From: Escherichia phage Killian
Strand: one strand, 5' to 3'
Sequence record: OQ446694.1
Length of the DNA stretch: 64,000 nucleotides
Shown here piece by piece: positions 13,385 through 55,970 of this stretch. How positions within the stretch are numbered: the first letter of the stretch is position 1; the number at the start of each line of letters is the position of its first letter. The notes beneath the pieces were generated by a model that was given only the letters and a program-made list of their open reading frames with translations, made no database searches and was not told the DNA's origin. The position numbers and the translations under genes are program-made.

Positions 13385-13399
13385 TCTTTGACGATTTAA

Positions 13400-13428
13400 G
13401 GGACCTTCGGGTCCCTTTAGTTGTTTTT
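13400..13428 (+). terminator. Hairpin GGGACC-TTCG-GGTCCC plus T-tract after gene 23
   Basis: 6-bp GC stem, TTCG loop, followed by TTTAGTTGTTTTTAT. Confidence 0.6.
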
Positions 13429-13432
13429 ATGG

Positions 13433-13440
13433 TATAAATA
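13433..13440 (+). promoter_or_regulatory. Late promoter TATAAATA upstream of gene 24
   Basis: Exact TATAAATA about 28 nt upstream of the ATG. Confidence 0.6.
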
Positions 13441-13467
13441 AATCATATAAACCAAAAGGAAAGCGCA

Positions 13468-16368: not shown

Positions 16369-17787
16369 TTATGGATAGGTATAGATGATACCAGTTTCTA
16401 AAGCAGTTTTATGAATGATGTATCCATTACGTGATTCTTGAACATCAACTTCTGGATAGTCTTTCATCATCTTCTGAAGAGTGTAACGATGCAGGTAGTA
16501 TTTACTGTCTGGATCTTCAGTTTTCCAATCTTTACCTTCTTCGGTCATTTTTTGGATTTCATCCATAACCCACCAACCGCACCAGATATAAGCTGAAGTA
16601 CGATGTGGAAGAGGATGAACATAAGGCAATTCACCTTCTGGTTCCGGAGCAACTTTATCAGTTACCTGAACTTGGCCTGTTGCTTTAACTGTTTTACTAT
16701 CATAGTCGGTTGCTGTAACGACAGCAGTAACTTCAATAGTTTGACTTCCAATAGATGAGGTGTCAACGGTGTATACGTTAGTTGACCCTTCTACAGGAGA
16801 AGAATCTTTCTTCCATGAGTATTCGATTTGTGCTTCTTCTGGAGCATCAGTGACATTAGCCGTAAATGTAGCCGAAGCATCTTGCTGAACGTTAATAGAA
16901 GGAGGAGTCAATGTAACCTGCGGATTCATTGTCTTCTTATTAACTGTCAATGATACTTCATTAGAAGTAACTTCCTTTTCATTGTAATTTTCAGCCGTTA
17001 CTTGGGCTACACACTTAACTGTTTTAGCTCCAACTGTGGTAGGAGTATAGTTAAATGTAGTAGTAGTTTCTCCATCGACCAGAGAACCGTCAACATACCA
17101 CTGATACGTAGCAGACGCTCCTGGTGGCTGTGAATCCAAGGCAGCAGTAAATTGAACTGGGGTTCCAATTACTCCGGCAGCAGGATTAGCAGGAGTTACG
17201 GCTAACGTAGTTGTCTGTGTTTTCTTATTAACTGTTAATGATACTTCATTAGAAGTAACTGTTTTTGCGTCATAATCTGTTGCTGTTACTTGAGCTACAC
17301 ACTTGATTTTTTTAACTCCGCTTGTGTCAGGAGTGTAATTGAATGTAGCGTCAGTTGCTTCGTCTACAGGAGAACCGTCAACGTGCCATTGATACGTAGC
17401 GTTTGCACCTGATGGCTGTGAAGCTAAGGCAGCGGTAAATTCAATTGGAGTTCCAATCACTCCAGCATCAGGGCTACCAGGAGTTACAGCTAAAGTAGTT
17501 GTTTGTGTTTTATTTTTGACTGTGATAGTTGTCGTAGTTTCTGCTGTTTCAGGATCAGCTTCTGGAACTGTATTTGTTGCAACCACCTTAATAGTCTTTT
17601 GACCTGCAGGTCCTTTTAGTACATAGCTAAAAGTTGCTTCAGCTCCATCCTGTGGAACATTATCTACACTCCAAGCATAGGTAATAGTTCCACCTTCAGT
17701 TTGACCACTGGGTGTAGCAGTAAACTGCTTGGTTTCATCAATAACTCCTGTTGGGGTTTTAGGAGTTATATCAACTGTAAAAGTCAT
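16369..17787 (-). CDS. hoc: Highly immunogenic outer capsid protein Hoc, with an extra Ig-like domain
   Basis: 472 aa against 376 aa in T4; N- and C-termini match T4 Hoc; contains two about 96-aa near-identical Ig-like repeats. Confidence 0.9.
   Translation of the reverse strand: MTFTVDITPKTPTGVIDETKQFTATPSGQTEGGTITYAWSVDNVPQDGAEATFSYVLKGPAGQKTIKVVATNTVPEADPETAETTTTITVKNKTQTTTLAVTPGSPDAGVIGTPIEFTAALASQPSGANATYQWHVDGSPVDEATDATFNYTPDTSGVKKIKCVAQVTATDYDAKTVTSNEVSLTVNKKTQTTTLAVTPANPAAGVIGTPVQFTAALDSQPPGASATYQWYVDGSLVDGETTTTFNYTPTTVGAKTVKCVAQVTAENYNEKEVTSNEVSLTVNKKTMNPQVTLTPPSINVQQDASATFTANVTDAPEEAQIEYSWKKDSSPVEGSTNVYTVDTSSIGSQTIEVTAVVTATDYDSKTVKATGQVQVTDKVAPEPEGELPYVHPLPHRTSAYIWCGWWVMDEIQKMTEEGKDWKTEDPDSKYYLHRYTLQKMMKDYPEVDVQESRNGYIIHKTALETGIIYTYP
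16942..17517 (-). repeat. Tandem duplication of a 288-bp Ig-like domain unit inside hoc
   Basis: Protein repeats KNKTQTTTLAVTP...SNEVSLTV occur twice back to back; DNA shows the same about 40-nt string near 16930 and 17220. Confidence 0.85.
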
Positions 17788-18477: not shown

Positions 18478-18527
18478 AATATTTCCTCAGTATAAATATA
18501 GATATATTTATTACATGGTATTTAAAC

Positions 18528-20039
18528 ATGACTGACATTAAAGTACATTTTTATGATTTTAGTCACGTGAGAATTGATTGCGAAGAAAGTACATTTCATG
18601 AACTCCGTGATTTCTTTAGCTTTGAAGCTGATGGGTATCGTTTTAATCCGAAATACAAATATGGCCACTGGGATGGACGAATTCGTCTTTTAGATTATAA
18701 TCGCCTTCTTCCATTCGGTTTAGTCGGGCAAATTAAAAAGTTCTGTGATAACTTTGGCTATAAAGCCTGGATTGACCCGCAAATTAACGAAAAAGAAGAA
18801 TTATCAAGAAAAGATTTTGATGAATGGCTTTCTAAATTAGAAATCTATTCAGGAAATAAAAGAATTGAACCGCATTGGTATCAAAAAGATGCAGTGTTCG
18901 AAGGATTAGTTAATCGTCGTAGAATTCTTAATCTTCCAACATCCGCAGGTAAATCTTTAATTCAAGCTTTGCTCGCTCGGTATTATTTGGAAAATTATGA
19001 AGGCAAAATTCTTATCATTGTTCCAACAACTGCTCTGACAACTCAGATGGCTGATGACTTTGTTGACTATCGTTTATTCAGTCATGCAATGATAAAGAAA
19101 ATCGGCGGTGGAGCATCAAAAGATGATAAATATAAAAATGATGCACCGGTCGTTGTTGGTACATGGCAAACTGTAGTAAAACAACCAAAAGAATGGTTCT
19201 CACAGTTTGGAATGATGATGAATGATGAATGTCATCTTGCTACAGGAAAAAGTATTTCATCTATCATATCAGGTTTAAATAACTGTATGTTTAAATTTGG
19301 TTTGTCTGGTTCATTGCGCGATGGCAAAGCTAATATCATGCAGTATGTTGGAATGTTCGGTGAAATATTTAAGCCAGTAACGACCTCTAAATTAATGGAA
19401 GATGGACAAGTAACTGAGTTAAAAATTAATAGTATTTTTCTTCGCTATCCCGATGAGTTCACTACTAAATTAAAGGGAAAAACTTACCAAGAAGAAATAA
19501 AAATTATTACTGGGCTCAGTAAAAGAAATAAATGGATCGCTAAATTAGCTATTAAGCTTGCGCAAAAAGATGAAAATGCTTTTGTCATGTTTAAACACGT
19601 ATCGCACGGTAAAGCTATTTTCGATTTAATTAAAAATGAATACGATAAAGTTTATTACGTATCAGGGGAAGTTGATACCGAAACCCGCAATATAATGAAA
19701 ACCTTAGCTGAAAACGGTAAAGGAATAATTATAGTAGCTAGTTATGGTGTATTTTCTACCGGTATTTCAGTTAAAAATCTGCATCACGTTGTTTTAGCAC
19801 ACGGTGTTAAATCTAAAATTATTGTATTGCAAACAATAGGTCGCGTATTACGTAAGCATGGTTCTAAAACAATCGCAACAGTCTGGGACCTCATAGATGA
19901 CGCGGGCGTAGTTTCTAAATCAAAAACATCTTCTAAAAAATACTCGCATTTAAACTATCTTTTAAAACATGGACTTGATCGTATTCAGCGTTATGCTGAT
20001 GAGAAGTTTAATTATGTGATGAAAGAGGTTAAACTTTGA
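18528..20039 (+). CDS. uvsW: UvsW RNA-DNA / DNA helicase
   Basis: 503 aa; helicase motifs (DECH box, TSAGKS Walker A-like). Confidence 0.9.
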   Translation: MTDIKVHFYDFSHVRIDCEESTFHELRDFFSFEADGYRFNPKYKYGHWDGRIRLLDYNRLLPFGLVGQIKKFCDNFGYKAWIDPQINEKEELSRKDFDEWLSKLEIYSGNKRIEPHWYQKDAVFEGLVNRRRILNLPTSAGKSLIQALLARYYLENYEGKILIIVPTTALTTQMADDFVDYRLFSHAMIKKIGGGASKDDKYKNDAPVVVGTWQTVVKQPKEWFSQFGMMMNDECHLATGKSISSIISGLNNCMFKFGLSGSLRDGKANIMQYVGMFGEIFKPVTTSKLMEDGQVTELKINSIFLRYPDEFTTKLKGKTYQEEIKIITGLSKRNKWIAKLAIKLAQKDENAFVMFKHVSHGKAIFDLIKNEYDKVYYVSGEVDTETRNIMKTLAENGKGIIIVASYGVFSTGISVKNLHHVVLAHGVKSKIIVLQTIGRVLRKHGSKTIATVWDLIDDAGVVSKSKTSSKKYSHLNYLLKHGLDRIQRYADEKFNYVMKEVKL

Positions 20040-20728
20040 ATTATAAATTAATATATGATAATTTAATTAATAGAGCCCAGAATCGGGCTCGCCTTAATGG
20101 ATACACTGAAACTCATCATATAATTCCTAGATGTATGGGTGGTACAGATGATAAGTGTAATTTGGTAGAACTAACAGCTGAAGAGCATTTTATAGCTCAT
20201 AAACTTTTAGCTAAAATTCATCCAAACCATTACGGTATAATTAAAGCCGTTATATGTATGGGAATGAATTCAAATACTCATGAAAGACACGTTAATAAAT
20301 CTTACGCCTGGGAACGTCGTAAAATGGCAAAACTTCAATCAGGTGAAGGTAATCCATTTTACGGAAAACACCATACGGAAGAACATAAACAATATATGTC
20401 AAAACTCATGAAAAATCGTCCAATTACGTGGGGAAGTAAAATTAGTAAAACTAAAAGAATGAACCCAACAAAATGGACTGAAGAAGCTAAAAGATTGCAT
20501 TCTATCAATCAATCAGGTAAAAATAATGGCATGTATGGAAGGAAACATTCCGCTAAATCTATTCAGAAAATTAAAGATAACATGCCAGATAATTCAGGAG
20601 CTAATAACCCAGCTGCTAAACCTATAGAAGTAAATGGTGTTAAGTATAAATGCATGAAAGATGCTTCTAAAGCTACTGGATTATCAATGTACAAACTAAG
20701 AATACTTAGAAAAACAGTTAATTTATAA
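20036..20728 (+). CDS. HNH homing endonuclease, MobE-like, with NUMOD-like repeats
   Basis: N-terminus ...YTETHHIIPRCMGGTDDKCNLVELTAEEHFIAH closely parallels the mobE product at 47946-48587; apparent TTG start overlapping the uvsW stop with AGAGG about 8 nt upstream. Confidence 0.8.
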   Translation: MNYKLIYDNLINRAQNRARLNGYTETHHIIPRCMGGTDDKCNLVELTAEEHFIAHKLLAKIHPNHYGIIKAVICMGMNSNTHERHVNKSYAWERRKMAKLQSGEGNPFYGKHHTEEHKQYMSKLMKNRPITWGSKISKTKRMNPTKWTEEAKRLHSINQSGKNNGMYGRKHSAKSIQKIKDNMPDNSGANNPAAKPIEVNGVKYKCMKDASKATGLSMYKLRILRKTVNL

Positions 20729-20740: not shown

Positions 20741-20753
20741 TTTGGAGAAAAAG

Positions 20754-20984
20754 ATGTTACTAGAATTTAAACAATTTCTTTATGAAGCTTCTATTGATGA
20801 ATTTATGGGTAAAATTGCCTCTTGTCAAACAATAGAAGGTCTAGAAGAACTTGAAGCTTATTATAAGAAAAGAGTTAAAGAAACTGAATTAAAAGATACT
20901 GATGACATCTCAGTCAGAGATGCTTTGGCAGGAAAAAGAGCTGAATTAGAAGATTCAGACGATGAAGTAGAAGAAAACTTTTAA
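20754..20984 (+). CDS. uvsW.1: UvsW.1 small acidic helical protein
   Basis: 76 aa from the ATG at 20754 (track start 20742 is TTG), preceded by GGAG; acidic; T4 UvsW.1 is 76 aa. Confidence 0.7.
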   Translation: MLLEFKQFLYEASIDEFMGKIASCQTIEGLEELEAYYKKRVKETELKDTDDISVRDALAGKRAELEDSDDEVEENF

Positions 20985-29633: not shown

Positions 29634-31691
29634 CTACATCTTGAACTTTTTAGACATTCCGTTGATGTTAACCAAAGAAGCCAAGATTTGAGAAACTTCG
29701 TTTTCCTCTTCTTTTGATTCTTCTACAAGGAATTGATTAAATCCAGCCATTGGACGAACTTCACCAGTTTCCATCAGATGATCGCCATCATATACCGATT
29801 CTTCTAATTGTTCAGAAGGAGGAACGATTGTACCTTCGATTAAATACTTGTTATAAGCAGTTTCTTTCATCATGTACGTGCTCACTTTATTAATCTTCAG
29901 CAAAATTCCACGTGGTAAAATAACTTCAGCTTCTGACGGAAATCCTGATAAATGACCCGGAACGATAACTTTGATTCGCTCAGCTCCTTTTATTACCATA
30001 CCTACGCTAGTTTCAGCATCTTCATTCGCATAAGCAGAGTGACTGCCCATATGCATCAAATCTTCTGCGTCAACAGAACCTTCTCCTTCACCAGAAAATA
30101 CTGCACTGGAATCATCTAGAGCCATATAGTTTTTACCATACTCACCGAAGATATTTGGTTTAAGCGATGTGGATACGAAGTTCTTAAAATAGAACATTTT
30201 ATTTTCAATATTATGACGTAAAGTTTTAAAGGTAACTTCTTGGCCACGGTAAAGCGTAGTTCCTGGAGGAAGAACTGATCCTTTGGCAAAAGCAGAATCC
30301 ATCGTCTCGATGTGTTTAATAGCTCGTTCCATATATTCTTCACGAGTAGAATCCGGTTTACCTAAAAGGAACGAGTTCATTTCAACATATGAATCCGCGC
30401 AATAATCTTCAATTACATCAGACTCAGCCTGAGTTAATCCTTTTGGGGGTACTTCAGTACTTGCATATTCATACGCTTGAGAAGCAGACTCATTAATCAA
30501 TTTATAAATGCCATTCATGACAAATTGAACAATAGCTACCTTTTCGTCTGGCGTGGCTTTAGAACCTTTAACTAAATCATTGATAATTTTCTTAATAACA
30601 TCAAAGCTATTAGAAATATTAATGTCAGCGAGATCGCTCAAAATTTTATCGGTTTTATAATCAAAGAATTCTTTATTCTTTAAATATTCTTGAGAACCTT
30701 GATATGTTATATCGCTCTGCAGTCTGATAGACGGATCACGTAAACGTGCATGGGCCAATGCAATATGATTTCGGAAGCTTTCTAGTTCATAATCGTTAGA
30801 TTTAAAACGAGAAGCACTTCTCATACCACCGATAGCTCCTTTGCTGAAGTTTGAACCAATCTGAATAACGCCAGAGTTCATTGGTCCTTCTGCTTTATAT
30901 ACCGGAACTTTAGATTCAAACTCTTGATATTTCTTGGCAGCGAAGCTATCACCCTGTAGCGAAGCATCGACAGTAGAATATTGAGCTTGTGCTGCTAATC
31001 GACGACTAATTTTAGTTTTCTGAATAACAGCTTGATCCGTGCGCTTATCATTTTCTAAAGCAATAGAAGCAGCAACAGCAACAGCTTTAGGAACAGCATT
31101 ACCTGTTTTAACATCTACATAAACATCACCAACCTTTGATTCAACTTTTGTGAATAACTCAGTTGAAATAGGAGGTACACCTGGAATGTCTTCTAAATTG
31201 GCATTTTTACGGTAAACCATAATATATGCATACTTTTTATCATAGTCCCAGATTTCCTTTAAAAGAACATATCGACCTGCTCCTTTAGTACGTACTAAAC
31301 GGTCAGCAATAACTTGCATTTGACGAGCAGCGCCATTTGTTTTACTTTTTAGTACGCGGAATAGGCATGCGTCAATTTTATACTGTTTCATTGTTTGAAG
31401 AGCAGTATCAAAAACCGCATTAATGACACCAATTGGATTTCCACCCAAGTTTTTAAGTTTAACTAATGATAGTTTCTCATTGACACCTATCATTACGATA
31501 TGCATCATTTTATCGCCTGGCTTAACGTTTTTATTTGTATCACCACCGGAGGTGTATGTACAAAATCTAAATCCAGGAAGCACGCTTTCTTCACCGGCTT
31601 GAATAGCAAAAATTTGAGGTATTTTATGCTTAGGATTTAAGTTAACAACCGGCGCCGAAGCGCCGTCAAATAATTCTGTAATAAGTTCCAT
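29634..31691 (-). CDS. alt: Alt-like ADP-ribosyltransferase, paralog 1 (head-packaged)
   Basis: 685 aa; N-terminal MELITELFD propeptide-like; C-terminal R-S-E ART motifs YRGQ, FVSTSL, EAEVILPRG. Confidence 0.85.
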   Translation of the reverse strand: MELITELFDGASAPVVNLNPKHKIPQIFAIQAGEESVLPGFRFCTYTSGGDTNKNVKPGDKMMHIVMIGVNEKLSLVKLKNLGGNPIGVINAVFDTALQTMKQYKIDACLFRVLKSKTNGAARQMQVIADRLVRTKGAGRYVLLKEIWDYDKKYAYIMVYRKNANLEDIPGVPPISTELFTKVESKVGDVYVDVKTGNAVPKAVAVAASIALENDKRTDQAVIQKTKISRRLAAQAQYSTVDASLQGDSFAAKKYQEFESKVPVYKAEGPMNSGVIQIGSNFSKGAIGGMRSASRFKSNDYELESFRNHIALAHARLRDPSIRLQSDITYQGSQEYLKNKEFFDYKTDKILSDLADINISNSFDVIKKIINDLVKGSKATPDEKVAIVQFVMNGIYKLINESASQAYEYASTEVPPKGLTQAESDVIEDYCADSYVEMNSFLLGKPDSTREEYMERAIKHIETMDSAFAKGSVLPPGTTLYRGQEVTFKTLRHNIENKMFYFKNFVSTSLKPNIFGEYGKNYMALDDSSAVFSGEGEGSVDAEDLMHMGSHSAYANEDAETSVGMVIKGAERIKVIVPGHLSGFPSEAEVILPRGILLKINKVSTYMMKETAYNKYLIEGTIVPPSEQLEESVYDGDHLMETGEVRPMAGFNQFLVEESKEEENEVSQILASLVNINGMSKKFKM

Positions 31692-31694
31692 GAT

Positions 31695-33791
31695 TTATCC
31701 TTGAATGAACTTGTAAGGCATGTTTGCAATATCTATGCAAGATGCAATAATTCCAAGAGATGATTCTACTTTTTGTTTAACATTTGATGAAACAAATGAT
31801 GCAAAGTCAACTCTGTCTTCTATTTCAATATCACCTGCCATTGCAACTACTTCACCAGTTTCCATTAGACGGTCACCGTCATAAATTACTGATTCAGTGA
31901 GTTCTTCCGTAGTCATAACTTCAGCTTGAATGAGTTTTGTATTATTAGATGTTGTTCCGTCATTATTAGAAGCATCAGTTATTTTATTAACTTTGACCAT
32001 CAATCCGCGTGGTAGAATAACTTCAGCTTCTGTTGCTATTCCGAGGCTTCCTGGATATACAACATTAACTTTATGAGCTCCATCAATTGCCCATCCTATT
32101 TGAACTTTAACGTATTCGGGATTTTCTTTATACGCTCTTATTTCGTTTGAATTAATAGTTATTCCTTCTTCATTTTTATCAACTGTCAATTCATTACGAG
32201 CTTCTGGTTCTAAAAGACCAATACCAGCATGTGTAATTCCAAAACGTCCAAAAATGATAGGAGTTAAAGAAGTAGATACAAAATTTCTGAAATAGAACAC
32301 TTTATTTTTAACTAGTGCTTCGTATATAGGAGCAGTCATGCTTTGAGCACGATAAACTGTAATGCCTTCTGGTATACGGTCACCATTTTCAAAGGCTGAA
32401 TCTAAATTATTTATCGCAGATTCAATTTCTTTTTCACTCATTACCTCATATCGTTCTGGATTGTAGCGACCTAAAAGAAGATTATTGATGTCAGTATATC
32501 CTGAACCACAATACTCTCTAATGCCGCGCTTTTGTGATGGAGTATATTTAGAACCATCACGAGCAATAGTAATATCAATCATTGGACCTGCACCAATTCC
32601 AGAAAAACTATAAATCATTCTTTTGAGGAATTTAGTTTTTGCTGCGTTCCAGGAATTTTTAGTTATTTCTTCCCAGACTTCATCTGGCTGTCCTTTACGG
32701 GTTTTATTATGTTTATCAAGCCAATTATCTTTATATTCTTCAAATAATTGATTAACAGCTGCTGCGTATTTCTCTAAACATTTTATTGAAGTAGTTGGTT
32801 CATTTTTAATCGCATTAAGAATTACATCTTTAATTTTTTCAGAAACTTCATTAACCTCACTTTTTGAAAAGAATTTATAGTCATAATGAAGTTCATCTGC
32901 AGTTCCTTCAGCAATAATTTTTGCTGCCTTAGTTTTAGAAGCTAATGAATTAATTCCAAGCTTCATTTCTTCCGCTTCGGGAATTAAAGGAGCGGTAGCA
33001 GGTTTATTGAAATTAGCTGCGGTAGATTCATACTTCTGGAATAATTCACTTTCAAATCTAGAAGATTCTAATGACTGACTTTGCGCAATTGCTCTACGGG
33101 AAATTTTAACTTTAACGATTACAGCTTGGTCAGAACGTTTATCATTTTCTTGTGCAATAGATGCTGCAATTGCCTCATTTTTAGTTACTTGAGCTCCAGT
33201 ATCTTTATTGATATAAACATCACCGACTTTCGATTCAACTTTAGTAAAGAGCTCGGTACTAATTTCTGGAACTCCTGGAATGTCTTCTAATGATACATTT
33301 TTGCGATGTATAAGAATATATGCGTACTTTTTATCGTAATCCCAGAGTTCCTTAAGAAGGACGTATCTGCCACCTGAACGACTGCGGATAAGTCTATCAG
33401 CAATAAGTTGAATTTGTCGAGCTTGACCAGCAGTTTTAGACTTAAGAATACGGAGCATGCAGGCATCAATTTTATACTGACGCATCGTTTGCATTGCAAC
33501 TGTAAAAACTGAATTGATATAATTAATTGGGCTTGGACCGAGACCTTTTAATTTAGCAATTGAACCTTTAGCAGTTAATGTAAAAGGAACAATATGCATC
33601 ATTTTATCGCCCATCTTTAAATCGCGATTAGTATCACCTCCAGATGTATAGGTACATAAACGAAAGCCTGGTTGTTCAATTGCGTCATCAACGTGAACTG
33701 AAAAAATTTGCGGTATTTTCTTCTTTGGATTTAAGTTTGTAATCGGAAGAGTAGTATCTTCGTCAAATAATTCTGTAATGAGTTCCATCAT
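31695..33791 (-). CDS. Alt-like ADP-ribosyltransferase, paralog 2
   Basis: 698 aa; same N-terminal MELITELFD and C-terminal motifs YRAQ, FVSTSL, EAEVILPRG; central region divergent from paralog 1; start may be the second Met (33788). Confidence 0.85.
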   Translation of the reverse strand: MMELITELFDEDTTLPITNLNPKKKIPQIFSVHVDDAIEQPGFRLCTYTSGGDTNRDLKMGDKMMHIVPFTLTAKGSIAKLKGLGPSPINYINSVFTVAMQTMRQYKIDACMLRILKSKTAGQARQIQLIADRLIRSRSGGRYVLLKELWDYDKKYAYILIHRKNVSLEDIPGVPEISTELFTKVESKVGDVYINKDTGAQVTKNEAIAASIAQENDKRSDQAVIVKVKISRRAIAQSQSLESSRFESELFQKYESTAANFNKPATAPLIPEAEEMKLGINSLASKTKAAKIIAEGTADELHYDYKFFSKSEVNEVSEKIKDVILNAIKNEPTTSIKCLEKYAAAVNQLFEEYKDNWLDKHNKTRKGQPDEVWEEITKNSWNAAKTKFLKRMIYSFSGIGAGPMIDITIARDGSKYTPSQKRGIREYCGSGYTDINNLLLGRYNPERYEVMSEKEIESAINNLDSAFENGDRIPEGITVYRAQSMTAPIYEALVKNKVFYFRNFVSTSLTPIIFGRFGITHAGIGLLEPEARNELTVDKNEEGITINSNEIRAYKENPEYVKVQIGWAIDGAHKVNVVYPGSLGIATEAEVILPRGLMVKVNKITDASNNDGTTSNNTKLIQAEVMTTEELTESVIYDGDRLMETGEVVAMAGDIEIEDRVDFASFVSSNVKQKVESSLGIIASCIDIANMPYKFIQG

Positions 33792-41011: not shown

Positions 41012-41244
41012 AGTACGCCATACACCCTTTGTGCTTCAACTAATCCATCAAAATCCAGTTTAAGATGTGTTATTTGGTCACCATCACCTGGATTCACAAT
41101 TACTAATACTGAACGAGGAGTTTCGGTAATAACACGAACCGATGTTTCAGGAAATCGTTCAGAAACCTTATTTACCAATTCCTGAGCAAATAGTTTAACT
41201 TTTTCTTGGAATTCTTTAACAGTAATTGGTTTTTCACTTAGCAT
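41008..41244 (-). CDS. Hypothetical protein (cd.2 position)
   Basis: 78-aa ORF. Confidence 0.5.
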   Translation of the reverse strand: MLSEKPITVKEFQEKVKLFAQELVNKVSERFPETSVRVITETPRSVLVIVNPGDGDQITHLKLDFDGLVEAQRVYGVL

Positions 41245-41768
41245 GTTGATCCCAGCTCCTTACTTTCAACGTTTTTAACTAATTTGACAGAAACTAATTC
41301 AGCATCTTGTGTAATCATTACCGGGCCTTCTTCATACTCTTCAAGATATTCTAGAGCTTTCTTTTTAGCTTCTTCCTTCGTATCAGTTTGAGCATAGATA
41401 TAAAACATGCAACCACCAGTAATACCTACTACTTTCCACTTAATTTCTTTATCAGTTTTAATTTCAAATTTACTGACAGAATCATCTTTTTGAACTTCTT
41501 CGAAAAAAGAATATTCTAACATATAAGCAATTGAAAATAGCGGGCTAACTTTATAGGATTCGCCCATTACATCAACAGCTTTATACCAGCGGTCATCAAT
41601 TTCGCGTTTAATGCTAATAACATTTTTCGCAGGATCTATTTTTACTTTAAATGAATTTTCCCCAATAAACTGGGCAATTCGTTTATTAGCCCCGCAAGTT
41701 TCATTAAAAATATCTTTATATCCAGCTTTAAAGCGATAAACCTTATCTTCTTCAAACCATTCGCTCAT
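41238..41768 (-). CDS. Hypothetical protein (cd.3 position)
   Basis: 176-aa ORF. Confidence 0.55.
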   Translation of the reverse strand: MSEWFEEDKVYRFKAGYKDIFNETCGANKRIAQFIGENSFKVKIDPAKNVISIKREIDDRWYKAVDVMGESYKVSPLFSIAYMLEYSFFEEVQKDDSVSKFEIKTDKEIKWKVVGITGGCMFYIYAQTDTKEEAKKKALEYLEEYEEGPVMITQDAELVSVKLVKNVESKELGSTC

Positions 41769-42499: not shown

Positions 42500-43720
<1,221 letters not shown>

Positions 43721-43724
<4 letters not shown>

Positions 43725-45155: not shown

Positions 45156-46743
<1,588 letters not shown>

Positions 46744-46750
46744 AATAAAA

Positions 46751-46766
46751 TGGGCCTTGCGGCCCA
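46751..46766 (-). other. Intercistronic hairpin TGGGCC-TTGC-GGCCCA between nrdB and denA
   Basis: 6-bp GC stem in the 27-nt spacer. Confidence 0.4.
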
Positions 46767-46770
46767 CTCC

Positions 46771-47949
46771 TTAAAAATATTTTTTAAAACTCATCATAAC
46801 TTTATCATCAACATCATTATCAATCTGTGCAACAAGGTAAGATGACAGTTCTACTTCTTGTGGCGCGGATTGAACATTATCAGAATTAAGATATTCACGA
46901 ATCCAAGGATATGGATGTTTAACCGGAGCATCGGTAATTGGGCATGGAAGACCGCACTGTTTCATACGAGATACAGTTAAGTAATCAATAAAGCTCCGCA
47001 TGCTATTTGTATTTAATCCAGGAACATCACCATCTTTAAATAAATGAACTGCCCAGTCTTTTTCTTGACGGTTAACTTCCATGAAAATATCAACTGCTTC
47101 TTGTTCACACTCTTGAGCAATTTTAACCCATTCATCGCCATCAGTACCGGATTGAAGTTGACGAATAATATATTGGGTGCCTTTAAGGTGAAGCTGCTCA
47201 TCACGTGCAATGAACTTCATAATCTTGGCATTACCTTCCATGATTTCCATGTTCTTATGGAAGTTAAAGGTACATGCAAAAGATACATAAAAACGAATAG
47301 CTTCTAAGGCATTAATAACGTGCAAACAGAGGTAAAGAGATTTCATTAGTGCTCGTTTAGCTTCGGCTTCTTGTTTAATAGCTCGATTTAAACGAAAAAC
47401 AGCATCAGGAGATTCTTTAGCTAGTTCTGTAAATTCTTTAGCATTTTCCCATTCACGGGTTTTAGTCAGAACATCATCATAATAGCGACCGATAGATTCA
47501 GCACGTTTCATGATAGCTTCATCTAGTACAATCTCATCAAATACCTTCGATGGATCAGTATAAAGATTTCGCATGATATGAGTATATGAACGACTGTGAA
47601 TAGTTTCACTAAAAGTCCATGTAGCAACCCATGTATCAAGACTTGGGTCTGAAATTAATGACATAAGTACAGCAGATGGCGCACGACCCTGAATGCTATC
47701 TAGAAGTGATTGATACTTCAGGTTATTAGTAAAAATATCTTGCTGATACTGAGGAAGCTTGTTAAATTGTGCAGCATCCATCATCAAGTTTACTTCTTCA
47801 GGACGCCAAAAAAATGATAAAGATTTCTCAATAAGTTCTTCAAATACTCTATGCCGTTGAATATCATATCGAGCTAAACCCAATCCAGAACCAAAAAACA
47901 TCGGCTCAGTTAAAATATTAACAGGGGATGTATTAAAAACTGTACTCAT
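46771..47949 (-). CDS. nrdB: Ribonucleotide reductase small subunit, intron-less
   Basis: 392 aa continuous ORF with di-iron ligand-type motifs; no interruption. Confidence 0.95.
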   Translation of the reverse strand: MSTVFNTSPVNILTEPMFFGSGLGLARYDIQRHRVFEELIEKSLSFFWRPEEVNLMMDAAQFNKLPQYQQDIFTNNLKYQSLLDSIQGRAPSAVLMSLISDPSLDTWVATWTFSETIHSRSYTHIMRNLYTDPSKVFDEIVLDEAIMKRAESIGRYYDDVLTKTREWENAKEFTELAKESPDAVFRLNRAIKQEAEAKRALMKSLYLCLHVINALEAIRFYVSFACTFNFHKNMEIMEGNAKIMKFIARDEQLHLKGTQYIIRQLQSGTDGDEWVKIAQECEQEAVDIFMEVNRQEKDWAVHLFKDGDVPGLNTNSMRSFIDYLTVSRMKQCGLPCPITDAPVKHPYPWIREYLNSDNVQSAPQEVELSSYLVAQIDNDVDDKVMMSFKKYF

Positions 47950-48587
47950 TTAGAATCCTTAAATTTACATTTATCATAATGCCATCTTAAAGCATTGCCT
48001 TTATTAACTTTCTTGCCACAATGCGGACAAGGCGGATACTCTGTACCTTGCTTAGTTCTCAAAGAGATCAAATCACGAGTTTCTTTAGTATGAGGAACAT
48101 CTCTTGTCGGAGAGATTGTACCATACATCGGATTAAGCACGCCGACTTTAGCAGCAGCTATATTCTTTTTAGCTTCTTCGGTTTTAGGTTTTCTCATGCG
48201 AGCTAAATGCTCTTTGGTAAATTTCCTTCCTTTAAGAGCTCTACTTATCTTTTCTCTGGTTTCTATAGAAACTTCACGTCCTATAGCAGCTTCAGATAAA
48301 CGTCGTCTACCTAATTCGTATAGTTGAGAAGAAATTTTATATGAGCGATTTTTACCAGTCAAGCACATTAAACCAAAAGCTTTCTTTAATCCTGGCGTGT
48401 CATATATTTTACATAAAAGCCAATGAGCTATAAAATGCTCTCTACCTGTTAATTCAACTAAATTTTCTTTATCATCAGAACCTCCCATACATCTAGGGAT
48501 TATATGATGAGTCTCTTTATATCCTAATAAAGGTTCCCGGGTTTTAGCCCGGGAAATTAAACTATTATATACGTTTTGATAATTCAT
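47946..48587 (-). CDS. mobE: HNH homing endonuclease MobE
   Basis: 213 aa; HNH motif ETHHIIPRCMGGSDDKENLVELTGREHFIAH; located between nrdA and nrdB as T4 mobE. Confidence 0.85.
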   Translation of the reverse strand: MNYQNVYNSLISRAKTREPLLGYKETHHIIPRCMGGSDDKENLVELTGREHFIAHWLLCKIYDTPGLKKAFGLMCLTGKNRSYKISSQLYELGRRRLSEAAIGREVSIETREKISRALKGRKFTKEHLARMRKPKTEEAKKNIAAAKVGVLNPMYGTISPTRDVPHTKETRDLISLRTKQGTEYPPCPHCGKKVNKGNALRWHYDKCKFKDSK

Positions 48588-50851
48588 TACAATTTACACG
48601 CTGCGCAATCTTCAGCTTTTGGAGTTTCTATTTCATAATCATCAGTACCAGAACCATCGCGGGTATTATGATAATAGAAATTTTTTCCGCCAAAATACCA
48701 AAAGTACAAAAGGTCATCAATCATTACAGACATTGGAACCTTTCCTTTTGGAAAAATCTGCGGGTCATAATATGTATTCGCTGAAGCTGATTGACATACC
48801 CATTTCAGCATAATAGCTACCTGCGTAAGATAAGGTTTATTACCTTTCTTAGCTAATTTCCACGTATAATCATAGAGGTCTATGTTATGTTCAATATTGG
48901 GCACGACTTGATTAAAGGAACCCTCTTTTGATTCTTTAACCGAGACTGGTCCACGTGGAGGCTCGATACCGTTTGTGCTGTTAGAAACTTGGGAAGATGA
49001 CTCACATGGCATAAGTGCTGATAATGTGCTATTACGGATGCCAAAGAGCTTAAGGTCTTCCCGCAGCGACGACCAGTCACAAACGTATTTTGGAGCTGCG
49101 ATTTGGTCAATCTTTTTATTGTACCAGTCGATAGGTAATTCGCCTCGAGACCAACGAGTGTCTGAATAATATTCGCAAGGTCCTTTTTCTTTGGCGAGCT
49201 TAATGGATGCTTTAATGAGTCCATACTGCAATCTCTCAAATAGTTCATGTGTTAAATCGTTAGCATCTTCATAAGAAGCAAAGTTACTTGCCAGCCAAGC
49301 TGCATAGTTAGTAACACCTACGCCAAGGTTTCGACGCTTTTTAGCTTTTTCTGCTTCAGGAACTGGATATCCTTGGTAATCCAACAGATTATCAAGAGCG
49401 CGAACTTGAACTTCTGCCAATTCATTAATTTTATCTTGGTCTTGCCAATCGAAGTTATCCAACACAAATGCAGATAACGTGCACAATCCAATTTCAGCAT
49501 CAGGACTATTCACATCATTTGTTGGAATAGCAATTTCACAACACAAGTTACTCTGACGAATAGGTGCCTTTTCACGAATAAACGGAGTATAGTTATTCGT
49601 ATTATCAATGAACTGTACATAAATCCTTGCTGTTCCTGATCGTTCAGTCATGAGCAATTCAAATAGTTCACGGGCTTTAATACGCTTTTTACGAATATTA
49701 GGATCTTTTTCTGCTGCTTCGTATAATTCACGGAAACGGTCTTGGTCTTTAAAATAAGAATAATAAAGTTCGCCACCCATTTCATGCGGACTAAACAAAG
49801 TAATGTAATCGTTCTTTCCGAATCGTTCCATCATTAGGTCATTCAGCTGAACACCATAATCCATATGACGGATACGGTTTTCTTCTACGCCTTTGTTATT
49901 TTTCAAAACGAGAAGATTTTCAACTTCCAAATGCCAAATAGGATAATAAGCAGTAGCAGCGCCGCCACGAATTCCGCCCTGTGAACATGATTTAACAGCA
50001 GTCTGAAAATGTTTCCAAAAAGGAATAACACCAGTATGACGCACTTCACCTGTGCCAATCTTAGAACCTTCGGCACGAATCATACCAACGTTAATACCAG
50101 TTCCAGCGCGTTTGGAGATATATTCAACAATTGAAGCAGAAGCTTTGTTAATAGACTTCAGCGAATCACCTGCTTCAATAACAACGCATGAACTAAACTG
50201 CCGAGTTGGAGTACGGCAACCAGCCATAATAGGAGTTGGTAATGAAATCTGTCGAGTAGATACTGCTTCATAAAAACGAATAACATGTTTTAATCTATCA
50301 ACAGGTTCATCTTGATGCAGTGCCATTCCAATAGTCATAAATGCAAACTGCGGAGTTTCATAAATTTGACCAGTGGTTTTATCTTTAACTAGATATTTTT
50401 CTTTTAATTGCATTGCCCCGGAATAAGTAAATTCCATATCCCGCTCATGCTTAATTTTTGATTCTAAAAATGTAATTTCTTCGGCAGAATATTTTGACAA
50501 CAATTCAGGGTCGTATTTACCTTCATTTACACAGTAAGAAATATGGTCAATAAATGAACGGGGCTCATACTGCCCGTAAACATGCTTACGAAGAGCGAAC
50601 ATTAAACAGCGTGCAGCTACATATTGATAATCAGGCTCTTCAACTGAAATAGAATTCGCGGCAGCCTTAATTACAATAGTTTGAATGTCATCAGTGGTCA
50701 TTCCATCACGGAGATATGATTTAATATTTTCATATAATTCATAAGGATCTACAGATGTTCCTTCAGCTGCCCAAGATAAAACTTTAATAATTTTTTGCGG
50801 GTCAAAGCTCTGAGAAACACCACTACTTTTGATAACATTAATTAATTGCAT
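48587..50851 (-). CDS. nrdA: Ribonucleotide reductase large subunit
   Basis: 754 aa, same as T4 NrdA; class I RNR motifs. Confidence 0.95.
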   Translation of the reverse strand: MQLINVIKSSGVSQSFDPQKIIKVLSWAAEGTSVDPYELYENIKSYLRDGMTTDDIQTIVIKAAANSISVEEPDYQYVAARCLMFALRKHVYGQYEPRSFIDHISYCVNEGKYDPELLSKYSAEEITFLESKIKHERDMEFTYSGAMQLKEKYLVKDKTTGQIYETPQFAFMTIGMALHQDEPVDRLKHVIRFYEAVSTRQISLPTPIMAGCRTPTRQFSSCVVIEAGDSLKSINKASASIVEYISKRAGTGINVGMIRAEGSKIGTGEVRHTGVIPFWKHFQTAVKSCSQGGIRGGAATAYYPIWHLEVENLLVLKNNKGVEENRIRHMDYGVQLNDLMMERFGKNDYITLFSPHEMGGELYYSYFKDQDRFRELYEAAEKDPNIRKKRIKARELFELLMTERSGTARIYVQFIDNTNNYTPFIREKAPIRQSNLCCEIAIPTNDVNSPDAEIGLCTLSAFVLDNFDWQDQDKINELAEVQVRALDNLLDYQGYPVPEAEKAKKRRNLGVGVTNYAAWLASNFASYEDANDLTHELFERLQYGLIKASIKLAKEKGPCEYYSDTRWSRGELPIDWYNKKIDQIAAPKYVCDWSSLREDLKLFGIRNSTLSALMPCESSSQVSNSTNGIEPPRGPVSVKESKEGSFNQVVPNIEHNIDLYDYTWKLAKKGNKPYLTQVAIMLKWVCQSASANTYYDPQIFPKGKVPMSVMIDDLLYFWYFGGKNFYYHNTRDGSGTDDYEIETPKAEDCAACKL

Positions 50852-51168
50852 AAGTCCTCAACTTGAAAATCGTCTTTAAACAATCGGTTAACTATATGAG
50901 CTATTATATCACCATGACACGGCTTTGGTTTACATGTGCATCCTAGCCTCATTCCACGTAAAGGCTCTAAATGTGCTTTAGTTATTTCTCCGGATTTAAT
51001 TCGACGTATAAAATCTTTTTTGAATAATTCAATGGCAGCCTCCCGGCTGCCAGCATCTTTACCGACGTAATTTCCCCAAAATGTACCACGGTGAATATTA
51101 ACATCAAAGTCGGATTTATATTTATTCACTACCTGGCATAGACGGCCCGCGCGGTGATAATTCGTCAT
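50842..51168 (-). CDS. Hypothetical protein (nrdA.1 position)
   Basis: 108-aa ORF with C-terminal [11 protein letters not shown]. Confidence 0.6.
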
Positions 51169-51385
51169 ATTGTTTTTCCGTTAAAACAGTAATATCATAG
51201 TAACAATCTGAAGAAGTTTTAACTGTAGAAATTTTATTATCAAAATACTCACGAGTCATTTTATGAGTATAATATTTTTTGCCGTAAATGATAATAGGCT
51301 GATTTGGTCCTGGAACTTCTAACTCACTTGGGTTAGGAAGTGTAAAAAGAACTGCACCAGAAGTATCTTTAAATCGTAAAATCAT
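51122..51385 (-). CDS. Hypothetical protein (nrdA.2 position)
   Basis: 87-aa ORF. Confidence 0.5.
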
Positions 51386-51408
51386 ATATCCTCACAATTG
51401 ATAATTAA

Positions 51409-52269
51409 TTACACCGCCATTTTTCCTTTAATAGGAGGGTGTGATTCGTAACCTTTAAGAACGAAATCTTTAGGCCTGAGTTTAAGAACATATTCCAATT
51501 GTTCTTTAGTAGAAAGATAGCGGAATTTATAAGGCAATCCGCCTATTACCAGTTCACAAAGCTCTTTAGGTTCACGACGTAAAATTTCTTTACATTGTTC
51601 TACGTGATTCATATAGATATGAGTATTACCACCAGAAAATATCAAATCTCCTGGAATAAGATTACACATCTTAGCTACAATATGAACTAACGCAGCATAT
51701 GATGCAATATTAAATGGAAGACCGAGGAAAACATCTACTGATCGTTGATACCACTGCAAATCCAAATAGCCATTACGCACATTAAACTGATAGAACATAT
51801 GACAAGGCGGTAATGCCATATATTTAAGTTCAGCTGGATTCCATGCTGAAACAATTTGACGTCTATCATTTGGCAGTTTTTTAATACGATTAACAACTTC
51901 TACAATTTGGTCTACACCGCCAAAATCACGCCATTGTTTTCCATAAATTGGACCAAGTTCACCGCTATGATATCCTAAATCTTTTGCTTGATTTTCGTAA
52001 TTTTCGTCCCAGACTGTTTTGCCTTGAATTAATGAATCATGCTGAATTAATCGTAAATCATTGACATTTGTGCTTCCTGATAAAAACCAAAGTAGCTCAG
52101 CAATGCAAGCTTTCCAGGCGAGCTTCTTAGTTGTTACTGCAGGAAAACCTTTACTTAAATCCCAACGTAATTTAGTACCGAACAAAGCAATTGTTCCTGT
52201 GCCTGTTCGGTCATCAGTTTCATAGCCATTTTCAAAAATGTCTTTAATTAAATCTTGGTATTGTTTCAT
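51409..52269 (-). CDS. td: Thymidylate synthase, intron-less
   Basis: 286 aa continuous ORF, equal to the spliced T4 Td length; no group I intron. Confidence 0.95.
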   Translation of the reverse strand: MKQYQDLIKDIFENGYETDDRTGTGTIALFGTKLRWDLSKGFPAVTTKKLAWKACIAELLWFLSGSTNVNDLRLIQHDSLIQGKTVWDENYENQAKDLGYHSGELGPIYGKQWRDFGGVDQIVEVVNRIKKLPNDRRQIVSAWNPAELKYMALPPCHMFYQFNVRNGYLDLQWYQRSVDVFLGLPFNIASYAALVHIVAKMCNLIPGDLIFSGGNTHIYMNHVEQCKEILRREPKELCELVIGGLPYKFRYLSTKEQLEYVLKLRPKDFVLKGYESHPPIKGKMAV

Positions 52270-52314: not shown

Positions 52315-52665
52315 TCAATACGGTTTAGCGTCAAATTTTCTTTCAATTTCAGGCGTAAAATACAATTCTTTACCACGCTTGGAAAAGCGACCAATAATAT
52401 GATAATTATTCTCATCAAACGTGATATTGCCAATATCCATAGCTTTCAACCAAATATCGATATTTCTATCCAGCTTTATATCAAAATTCCAATACGGAGA
52501 ACTATTACCAAAAATACTGCAAGCGGATTCAGTGCAATAACTGCTGCTATAAATCTTGTCTTTGGGAACTACTAATTGATAGACGCCTTTAATAAACTGA
52601 GGACCCTGCCATTTTGGTTGTTTCGCGTCTTTTTCTAATAGAATAGGGTAATAATTAAAGTTCAT
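52315..52665 (-). CDS. Hypothetical protein between frd and td (absent from this position in T4)
   Basis: 116 aa from the ATG (120 aa from upstream GTG); no recognised motif. Confidence 0.55.
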   Translation of the reverse strand: MNFNYYPILLEKDAKQPKWQGPQFIKGVYQLVVPKDKIYSSSYCTESACSIFGNSSPYWNFDIKLDRNIDIWLKAMDIGNITFDENNYHIIGRFSKRGKELYFTPEIERKFDAKPY

Positions 52666-52685
52666 ATTTTCCGCCACGCGTTATT

Positions 52686-53270
<585 letters not shown>

Positions 53271-53513
53271 TCAAAACCCCCTTTCAATAAACCATTCAGT
53301 GGCTTTATTAGCATCAAAGAATAATTCTTCATATGTCTTTTCTTTGTTTTCAAAGACTGTCACACAAACGCGTTGACATTCTCCGCAGTATTCTTCTGAC
53401 ATACTCAAAGCGTCAGAAAACATTTCATTAAATTCATTTAAATCAGGATTATACAAAGCGTTAAAAATTGCATAATCGAATTCATCATTCATAAATTCAA
53501 ATACAAAAATCAT
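53271..53513 (-). CDS. Hypothetical protein (frd.1 position)
   Basis: 80-aa ORF. Confidence 0.5.
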   Translation of the reverse strand: MIFVFEFMNDEFDYAIFNALYNPDLNEFNEMFSDALSMSEEYCGECQRVCVTVFENKEKTYEELFFDANKATEWFIERGF

Positions 53514-53521
53514 ATTATCTC

Positions 53522-53857
53522 CTAATATAAAGGATCGGGAACATATCCACTGGCTTTAATCATTTTAATTAACGTTAACATTCCTTTATTAACTGCTCGT
53601 GAGATTTCATCAAAAACTTCATCACTAAAAAGTTCTAACACACCCTTCTGAACTTTTAATTTACATCCAACAATTTCGTCATCACCTATAGTAAATTCGT
53701 TTCCGCCAATTCCACCGAAAAACTTAATTACGCCAGTTAACTGTCTTCCACGAGAATATGGGTCGTGTGATAAAGTAATATGAGTCACCCCAGGTACAGT
53801 TTTAAATTGGCAGCGGATATTTACTTGGGCAATTCCAGTTACGTGAATGTCAGACAT
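53522..53857 (-). CDS. Hypothetical protein (frd.2 position)
   Basis: 111-aa ORF. Confidence 0.5.
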   Translation of the reverse strand: MSDIHVTGIAQVNIRCQFKTVPGVTHITLSHDPYSRGRQLTGVIKFFGGIGGNEFTIGDDEIVGCKLKVQKGVLELFSDEVFDEISRAVNKGMLTLIKMIKASGYVPDPLY

Positions 53858-55871: not shown

Positions 55872-55950
55872 TTTTATTTCCTTTTTAATTTAATTAACAG
55901 TTGGTGCTATGACGATGTATGACCTCATAGCTGGTCAGTGAGATAATTAT
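55872..55950 (-). promoter_or_regulatory. Gene 32 mRNA leader with autoregulatory translational operator
   Basis: Minus-strand leader ends ...UUAAUUAAAUUAAAAAGGAAAUAAAAAUG, preceded by a GC-containing structured segment, as in the T4 gene 32 leader. Confidence 0.5.
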
Positions 55951-55954
55951 AATC

Positions 55955-55962
55955 TATTTATA
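55955..55962 (-). promoter_or_regulatory. Late promoter TATAAATA (minus strand) upstream of gene 32
   Basis: Plus-strand TATTTATA between the gene 59 stop and gene 32. Confidence 0.45.
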
Positions 55963-55970
55963 ATAAGCAA

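Follow-up and report, generated by a model that had tools for sequence, protein, structure and literature searches.

The td and nrdB genes of Escherichia phage Killian (OQ446694.1) are free of introns, and the homing endonuclease genes segD, segE and segG are missing from the 64,000-nucleotide stretch analysed here (the window). This picture, first drawn from the sequence alone in a first-pass annotation, is correct but ordinary and already known. The window very probably holds a standard T-even cluster in which T2-like empty sites are combined with an intact mobE of the T6/LZ7 type, a pairing that is both known and common.

Uninterrupted td and nrdB genes

The cluster runs in the order frd, ORF229c, td, nrdA.2, nrdA.1, nrdA, mobE, nrdB, denA. 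The two genes that are interrupted in T4, and their intron sites, are:

46771..47949, minus strand: nrdB, ribonucleotide reductase small subunit, an uninterrupted 392-aa ORF (ORF list; Pfam PF00268, E 1.5e-37; T4 exon colinearity)
47243..47318, minus strand: empty nrdB intron site (between 47274 and 47273) with a surrounding stretch that corresponds to the homing site for I-TevIII (junction sequence)
51409..52269, minus strand: td, thymidylate synthase, an uninterrupted 286-aa ORF (ORF list; Pfam; T4 exon colinearity)
51710..51747, minus strand: empty td intron site with the ~38-bp equivalent of the I-TevI homing site (junction alignment with the T4 delta-intron, T2 and vB_Eco_CP sequences)

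Both ORFs are colinear with the T4 exons and encode full-length proteins, the introns being precisely absent, as expected from the earlier reading of td (286 aa) and nrdB (392 aa) as continuous. Td matches the Pfam family PF00303 (Thymidylat_synt) from end to end (E 7.9e-96) and is identical to spliced T4 Td at 275 of 286 residues. By blastn, window positions 51720 and 51721 abut T4 (NC_000866) positions 143546 and 144564, which leaves out the 1017-bp intron. The junction sequences place the insertion point of a precise empty site between 51721 and 51720, and nothing is inserted there that would correspond to a td group I intron with I-TevI, a ~1-kb insertion after td nucleotide 549.

I-TevI has a 38-bp site, cuts at -23/-25 and prefers CNNNG; it is generally tolerant of substitutions, and the main determinants of cleavage are the CNNNG motif and its distance (PMC2988022). 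The window carries a putative site of this kind, with CNNNG in the range 23–27 nt upstream and a predicted binding region of ~20 bp centred on the insertion point. The cleavage motif is CAACG at 51747-51743, or -27..-23 of the insertion site. There are seven substitutions relative to T4 and two relative to T2, every one synonymous; those without a T2 counterpart lie at -7 and -4, and the exon II side is identical to T2. At td positions 544 and 546 (-6 and -4) the intron-containing phages a48 and T6 are both T4-type, as the I-TevI cleavage position predicts, whereas the window is not, its base at 544 being that of T2. The exon II flank of a48 is window-type, as is that of T6 except at position 552.

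For nrdB, blastn shows window 47273..47276 abutting T4 138457..139058, so that the 598-bp intron is missing. The T4 join reads TTTTGCGT followed by GTACC, with exon 1 ending in TTTTGCGT, the intron ending in CATACG and exon 2 starting with GTACC. Compared with this delta-intron join, the window has a single synonymous difference, at -2, over at least -44..+30. No insertion corresponding to an nrdB intron with I-TevIII, whether the 598-bp T4 relic or the intact form of ~1.09 kb, is present between 47274 and 47273, and a phmmer search with T4 I-TevIII gave no match in six frames of the window. Alignment with the T4 exons, the check that the first-pass annotation had proposed, thus finds both insertion sites empty, with seven synonymous changes at the td site and one at the nrdB junction.

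Covariance-model scans agree with the alignments. Rfam in a permissive mode recovered both introns of the T4 control (Intron_gpI at 40.3 bits in td and 35.7 bits in nrdB), and in the same mode no Intron_gpI was found in the equivalent td/nrdB region of the window at E<=1 or across the whole 64-kb window at E<=0.01. Rfam at the gathering threshold also returned zero window matches, but this blank is uninformative, since the same setting missed the real T4 td and nrdB introns.

An intact mobE between nrdA and nrdB

Between the two intron-free genes lie nrdA and its small neighbours, which are colinear with T4 at 94%, and a free-standing homing endonuclease gene:

47819..47836, minus strand: nrdB nucleotides 114-131, corresponding to the region nicked by MobE, with AAA at codon 42 (allele comparison)
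47946..48587, minus strand: mobE, intact free-standing HNH + NUMOD3 homing endonuclease gene, 213 aa (Pfam; phrog_655)
48534..48555, minus strand: hairpin within the 5' end of mobE, with an 8-bp stem, a 6-nt loop and a U-rich tail (fold -17.8 kcal/mol, z -2.36)
48587..50851, minus strand: nrdA, ribonucleotide reductase large subunit, 754 aa (ORF list)
50842-51168, upstream of nrdA: nrdA.1 (ORF list)
51122-51385, upstream of nrdA: nrdA.2 (ORF list)

The predicted MobE protein has an N-terminal HNH domain (23.1 bits against a cut-off of 21.4, at aa 24-44) and a C-terminal DNA-binding region, with NUMOD3 at 35.5 bits. It matches the homing endonuclease family phrog_655 at E 3e-65 and T4 MobE by phmmer at E 2.4e-40, the middle part of the T4 protein being divergent. 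The closest alleles are those of LZ7 (DQ178119; 98.9% nucleotide identity) and T6 (96.6%). The gene occupies the nrdA/nrdB slot, where T-even mobE has been described as a promoterless cassette (PMC2790892, PMC2988022); its start codon, ATG, shares bases with the stop codon of nrdA (UAAUGA), as in T4 mobE (PMC2988022), and a terminator hairpin lies ~27 nt into the ORF. That hairpin is one of just two terminator-like sites in the region. An internal terminator has been mapped in T4 mobE, and the LZ7/RB15 variant has a shorter stem and a longer loop (PMC2790892); the window hairpin is, by its predicted fold, the equivalent of the mapped T4 element.

The nrdB allele next to this gene is of the kind found with mobE. 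MobE nicks mobE-less nrdB at nucleotides 122-126, with a characteristic pattern at codon 42, and MobE assays so far have used T4 mobE only (PMC2790892). In the nick-site region the window is identical to T6, LZ7, a48 and vB_Eco_CP, all of which carry mobE. Codon 42 is AAA in the window, AAG in T2, which lacks mobE, and CGG in T4, and codons 42-44 set the window apart from the T2 allele that is nicked.

Empty seg sites

The seg positions of T4 correspond to short spacers in the window. These, and the one GIY-YIG gene recovered, are:

13385..13467, unstranded: gene 23-24 spacer, empty segD site, 83 bp; T4 106521-107311 has no counterpart
18478..18527, unstranded: inh-uvsW spacer, empty segE site, 50 bp; T4 112044-112680 has no counterpart
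55872..55970, unstranded: gene 59-32 spacer, empty segG site, 99 bp; T4 147918-148547 has no counterpart
46333..46767, minus strand: denA, encoding endonuclease II; its catalytic domain is of the GIY-YIG type, and it does not belong to the homing endonucleases (Pfam PF01541, 27.1 bits against a cut-off of 22.6)

All three spacers are close to those of T2, being identical at 83/83, 49/50 and 99/99 positions, respectively, and gene 32 is T2-like as well. Searches of all six frames with SegD, SegE, SegG and I-TevI (phmmer, E<=10) found no GIY-YIG seg gene; the sole match of this set was between I-TevI and a 230-aa HNH protein encoded beside uvsW (20033-20725, E 1.4e-05). Nor did Pfam detect a GIY-YIG domain in the seven scanned ORFs that are missing from, or differ from, T4. 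The earlier statement that no seg genes occupy the T4 positions therefore stands for segD, segE and segG, all of which are missing, but one of the positions it named was wrong: segD of T4 lies between genes 23 and 24 (Table 1, PMC2988022), not in the 24-hoc region, where T4 has no seg gene. The 23-24 spacer is likewise empty in the window. As of a 2010 review, no activity had been determined for segD and its target was unknown (PMC2988022). We assessed the SegD, SegE and SegG targets purely through similarity to T2. The presence of denA, which the first-pass annotation had also reported, is supported by the PF01541 match and by a phmmer search with T4 DenA (E 5e-94).

Relationship to other T-even phages

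The window shares with T4 (NC_000866) a syntenic backbone, 89–97% identical in most blocks, together with denA, nrdA, nrdA.1, nrdA.2 and frd. T4 differs in having a td intron with I-TevI, an nrdB intron with an I-TevIII relic, and segD, segE and segG, and in lacking ORF229c, the HNH gene adjacent to uvsW and a second full-length alt paralogue. In the T4 annotation mobE is split into two ORFs (mobE, 141 aa, and nrdB.1, 83 aa), whereas that of the window is one 213-aa ORF.

T2 (MH751506) has the same empty sites. As in the window, its td (861 bp) and nrdB (1179 bp, 392 aa) have no introns, ORF229c sits between frd and td, and segD, segE and segG are missing. It differs in lacking both mobE and an HNH gene in the gap separating uvsW from uvsW.1, and in carrying the nicked nrdB allele. 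The mobE genes of LZ7 and T6 resemble that of the window in being 642-bp ORFs in the same nrdA/nrdB slot, with the same overlap of the ATG and nrdA stop and an internal hairpin. T6 also pairs mobE with an intron-free nrdB, but has a td intron with I-TevI.

The complete arrangement is found in vB_Eco_CP (OZ034683), which has nrdB (392 aa), a homing endonuclease (213 aa), nrdA, nrdA.1, nrdA.2, td (286 aa), a small ORF and frd. In slur02/04, KAW1E185 and Ge15 the match spans equal the query, so these genomes, like the window, have no intron-sized insertions. All of these are just ~94–96% identical to the window at the nucleotide level, which makes the window phage a separate isolate or lineage.

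Among roughly 500–600 records that carry the region, about 197 have the td intron and about 118 the nrdB intron (at >=80% coverage), and reviews describe T4 as the outlier among T-even phages for introns and homing endonucleases (PMC2988022; Table 5, PMC2993671). The minority status of the introns in the records, the empty sites of T2, the gene order of vB_Eco_CP and these reviews together remove the contrast that the first-pass annotation had drawn in presenting the absence of introns as surprising "despite" a near-T4 backbone: intron-free td and nrdB with few homing endonuclease genes are the majority state. Little is at stake in the observation itself, as the sporadic distribution of introns and homing endonucleases in T-even phages, in which T4 is heavily colonised and T2-like genomes act as natural recipients, is on record from the 1990s onwards and was reviewed in 2010. 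For annotation, the td, nrdB and gene 32 loci of the window phage can be confidently labelled as empty-site alleles, and the nrdA/nrdB slot as holding an intact LZ7/T6-type mobE.

Alternative explanations

A cryptic or degenerate intron, which the first-pass annotation had named as the finding that would overturn its claim, or an assembly error in which the introns were collapsed, can be dismissed for practical purposes. We looked for evidence in support of either and found none by alignment or by the T4-controlled permissive Rfam scan, which picks up both T4 introns and none in the window; both ORFs are uninterrupted, their full-length proteins align end to end with those of T4 and T2, and continuous td and nrdB genes recur in many independent genomes. 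Secondary loss is a more serious proposition, albeit an improbable one. Here the lineage would once have had the td and/or nrdB introns, and perhaps the seg genes, and these would have been precisely removed, for instance through recombination with relatives that have none. Recombination could feasibly replace an allele carrying an intron, since the genome is strongly mosaic (identity to T4 varies from 69% to 97% between blocks by blastn) and the nearest relatives, just 95–97% identical, include some with introns and some without. The retention of mobE without an nrdB intron, as in T6, also fits such a history, and replacement of a whole allele by recombination would leave no trace. Against it, td positions 544 and 546 are not T4-type, unlike those of intron-containing a48 and T6, the exon II flank is T2-type, and the short spacers match T2 and hold no intron or seg remnants.

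It is similarly improbable that the homing sites have drifted beyond the reach of the T4 endonucleases, leaving the phage immune rather than a recipient. The seven synonymous differences from T4 at the td site could be read in this way, and the two without a T2 counterpart, at -7 and -4, might make the site resistant to I-TevI, but this is the weaker alternative. The CNNNG motif and its distance are kept, I-TevI is substitution-tolerant (PMC2988022), and the primary binding region in exon II is that of T2, an efficient intron recipient (I-TevI/input ratio 2.1; PMC2790892); resistance of the td site thus appears unlikely. The case of nrdB is different. In its MobE region, codons 42-44 are not those of the nicked T2 allele, and Wilson and Edgell proposed that nrdB polymorphism serves as self-protection in mobE-carrying phages (PMC2790892). 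For MobE and nrdB, the resistant-allele reading is part of our main explanation, that of a T-even cluster with T2-like empty sites and an intact mobE.

Expected outcome of crosses with T4

The first-pass annotation had proposed that introns and seg genes would home into this genome when it is crossed with T4. This is plausible for the td intron and segG and is unsupported for the T4 nrdB intron. In crosses between T4 and T2, the latter is the classical recipient (PMC2790892, PMC2988022). The window td is a plausible recipient for the T4 td intron because CAACG lies at the correct distance, the exon II side is that of T2, a proven recipient, and a48 shares the flank. On mixed infection with T4, window td would be cut by I-TevI at CAACG (23/25 nt upstream of where the intron inserts), and repair of the break would then copy in the td intron and at least 23 bp of T4 exon I. 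The gene 32 locus is likewise a plausible recipient for segG, given the T2 identity of the 59-32 spacer and the T2-like gene 32: SegG would be expected to cut T2-type gene 32 and drive segG in.

Homing of the T4 nrdB intron into window nrdB is doubtful. I-TevIII of T4 is a deletion form that has no activity, and mobility of the intron is restricted to action in trans by MobE, which nicks a mobE-less nrdB (PMC2790892). As I-TevIII is defunct, mobility depends on MobE, and the window has both mobE and a mobE-linked nrdB allele, the T4 nrdB intron would be expected to home inefficiently. An intact I-TevIII of the RB3 type could probably cut window nrdB, whose site is one base off the tested T4 substrate; the cuts would be expected 14 and 16 bp upstream of 47274. 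In planned crosses, the td intron and segG of T4 should therefore be driven into this phage, whereas transfer of the T4 nrdB intron should not be driven by I-TevIII or, probably, by MobE.

A second HNH gene beside uvsW

The window also carries a second HNH gene:

20036..20728, plus strand: HNH + NUMOD3 gene, mobE paralogue, 230 aa, between uvsW and uvsW.1 (Pfam; phrog_655)

With mobE, this gives two HNH + NUMOD3 genes, which upholds the suggestion that the phage carries its own HNH elements, one of them inside the interval originally reported. NUMOD3 is detected in the paralogue at 51 bits and HNH at 16.7 bits, below the cut-off; the protein matches phrog_655 at E 4e-61 and is 38% identical to window MobE, and the first 190 nt of the gene match T4 mobE at 72% (blastn). 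It has a TTG start that overlaps the uvsW stop and an internal hairpin of its own. About 48 of 501 related records contain it, at identity >=98%. Literature searches found no paper on this gene or on Tequatrovirus intron surveys. It might be an active homing endonuclease that targets the 3' end of uvsW, in which case the separation of uvsW and uvsW.1 in T-even phages might be an insertion scar, by analogy with the mobE-split nrdA of phage Aeh1, although we consider this unlikely. The idea that segE and this gene are mutually exclusive was rejected, as HY03 carries both, while W143 has the HNH gene only. The 5' part of uvsW is 92% identical to that of T4 (blastn).

Introns absent from td and nrdB

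The window spans gene 13 to gene 36 of a Tequatrovirus (T4-like) genome, in blocks colinear with T4 (NC_000866) at mostly 89-97% identity by blastn. Database relatives are at best ~95-97% identical, over 5.5-18 kb, so the phage is a distinct but typical group member. The reported interval (46771-52269) is bounded exactly by the nrdB stop and the td start:

46771-47949 (-): nrdB, a single 392-aa ORF, the length of T2 nrdB
47946-48587: mobE in the nrdA/nrdB gap, an intact 213-aa HNH and NUMOD3 gene
48534-48555: terminator-like hairpin within the 5' end of the mobE ORF
51409-52269 (-): td, a single 286-aa ORF, with Pfam Thymidylat_synt across its full length

Td shares 275 of 286 residues with spliced T4 Td. 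In the alignment to T4, the check that the first-pass annotation had proposed, T4 143546|144564 are joined at window 51720|51721 and T4 138457..139058 at window 47273..47276; because the T4 alignment ends abut, both T4 introns (td, 1017 bp; nrdB, 598 bp) are absent exactly at their insertion sites, which are precisely empty. An Rfam scan of the window at the gathering threshold was negative, and was set aside because it also missed the genuine T4 introns: these group I introns, in the T4 control locus (L001, NC_000866 133000-150000), score below the cut-off of 50 bits, so such a negative scan cannot exclude ORF-containing phage introns. Permissive mode recovered both controls (td 40.3 bits, nrdB 35.7 bits), and gave no Intron_gpI match at E<=1 in the window region equivalent to T4 td/nrdB or at E<=0.01 across the entire window. 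An artefact or cryptic intron is thus excluded by full-length translation and the control-validated scan, and td and nrdB are continuous, as first annotated.

The intron-free state is not unusual; the configuration is already known and common. Among roughly 500-600 INPHARED records carrying the region, the T4 td intron is found in 197 and the nrdB intron in 118 (at least 80% coverage), and uninterrupted td is listed for T2, RB27, AR1 and dozens more. Phage vB_Eco_CP has the window's gene order and ORF lengths, 213-aa endonuclease included; T2 has this layout minus mobE, and T6 likewise combines mobE with an intron-free nrdB. Among T-even type genomes then sequenced, only T4, T6, RB3 and LZ2 had intron-encoded endonucleases (Petrov et al., Table 5, PMC2993671). 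A 2010 review treats T4 as the outlier (PMC2988022). The surprise implied by the first-pass annotation, that introns are missing despite a near-T4 backbone, is therefore unfounded.

Empty seg slots

In T4, segD is flanked by genes 23 and 24, segE by inh and uvsW, and segG by 32 and 59 (T4 annotation; PMC2988022). None of these segments has a window counterpart by blastn, and spacers of 83, 50 and 99 bp are left, identical to those of T2 at 83/83, 49/50 and 99/99 positions. Six-frame phmmer searches of the window with SegD, SegE, SegG and I-TevI found no GIY-YIG homing endonuclease. The GIY-YIG domain is present in denA, as had been noted, and the claim that seg genes are absent stands once one position is corrected: segD does not belong between 24 and hoc. 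The gene-32 locus is T2-type: its spacer is identical, and of 19 fifty-base blocks of the coding sequence, 15 match T2 at least as well as T4. The phage documented as SegG recipient is T2 (PMC2988022). For segD, the 2010 review records no determined activity and no known target (PMC2988022).

Two HNH genes

Scanned ORFs absent from or differing from T4 have no nuclease domain apart from two HNH genes, mobE and a paralogue, which bear out the statement that the phage carries its own HNH elements:

20036-20728 (+): mobE paralogue, 230-aa HNH and NUMOD3 protein, 38% aa identity to window MobE

The 213-aa gene bears the published mobE hallmarks. At the DNA level it shares 98.9% identity with LZ7 mobE and 96.6% with that of T6. 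nrdA ends in two stop codons, and the ATG of mobE overlaps the first (UAAUGA). In T4 the mobE terminator is found 27 nt past the AUG, and its LZ7/RB15 variant has a shorter stem and longer loop (PMC2790892), as does the window hairpin. T4 139716-140416 (L001 6717-7417) holds mobE (141 aa) and nrdB.1 (83 aa) where the window, LZ7 and T6 have one intact 213-aa ORF; the NUMOD3-like middle of T4 mobE runs on in the +1, then the +2 frame, and the reference gene looks frameshifted or mosaic, though genetically active.

The paralogue sits exactly between uvsW (18528-20039) and uvsW.1 (20742-20984). It starts at a TTG that overlaps the uvsW TGA, GAGG stands 7 nt before this start, and close to the 5' end of the ORF there is a GAGCCC...GGGCTC hairpin, as in mobE. 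The ORF ends in ...TTAATTTATAA, the end of T2 uvsW, which suggests insertion within the final uvsW codons. It occurs at 98% identity or more in ~48 of 501 relatives, with segE in HY03 and without it in W143; our literature search found no paper on a uvsW-adjacent mobE paralogue.

Recipient status of td and nrdB

The first-pass annotation took the phage for a recipient in crosses with T4, a reading that holds better for td than for nrdB. The recognition site of I-TevI covers ~38 bp; the enzyme cleaves 23 and 25 nt upstream of where the intron inserts, preferring CNNNG there, and tolerates many substitutions (PMC2988022). The window keeps CAACG at -27..-23, and its site differs from that of T2 only at -7 and -4, the exon II side being identical; the td intron reaches T2 at about twice input (PMC2790892). 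Intron-containing a48 and T6 are T4-type at td 544 and 546 (-6 and -4), the pattern that invariable co-conversion of the stretch from cut to insertion would produce, and their exon II flank is of the window type, entirely in a48 and except at position 552 in T6. Together these features make the window td a plausible recipient of the td intron. That the td allele might resist I-TevI is unlikely, as the enzyme is tolerant and motif and spacing are conserved. Genomes of this group are mosaic, and the sites might once have been occupied and then lost their introns precisely; this is improbable, since the T4-type bases at -6 and -4 that a48 and T6, the two intron-containing phages compared, both carry are missing and the window spacers match T2.

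For nrdB, efficient homing of the T4 intron is doubtful, since T4 I-TevIII is an inactive deletion (PMC2790892) and the window has its own mobE and an nrdB allele of mobE-carrying phages; the nrdB part of the recipient claim overlooked both the defunct enzyme and the mobE inside the interval. The T4 intron moves only in trans, through a MobE-dependent nick at nt 122-126 in mobE-less nrdB alleles, and Wilson and Edgell proposed that polymorphisms in the MobE region protect a mobE-carrying host (PMC2790892). Over nt 100-165, window nrdB matches LZ7 throughout and departs from T6 and a48 by one base (nt 165) and from vB_Eco_CP by two (nt 141 and 165), all four mobE-carrying; all five share the stretch proposed for MobE recognition (nt 114-131, codon 42 AAA), whereas the nicked T2 allele differs there. 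Around the insertion site, window nrdB is a single synonymous base from the T4 delta-intron substrate, and an intact I-TevIII of the RB3 type, whose cuts fall 14 and 16 bp upstream, would probably act on it.

Other differences from T4

Small ORFs absent from T4 occupy gene junctions (52315-52677, 53271-53513, 53522-53857, 41238-41768 and 43404-43724, all (-)). They all fall in PHROG families of unknown function, none nuclease-like: the frd/td ORF is annotated RB32ORF229c in T2 and T6, one at frd/frd.1 is DUF7247, that at cd.2/cd.3 has 176 aa (phrog_3710) and that at pseT/pseT.1 106 aa. The window has a tandem pair of full-length alt-like ADP-ribosyltransferase genes (29634-31691 (-) and 31695-33791 (-); 685 and 698 aa, 41% aa identity, PF03496 in both); at the position of the second copy, T4 has no more than the relic ORFs alt.-1 and alt.-2. 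Finally, hoc (16369-17787 (-)) is longer than its T4 counterpart (472 versus 376 aa); T4 110748-111053 aligns to it twice and Pfam reports PKD and Ig hits, consistent with one extra Ig/PKD-like domain.
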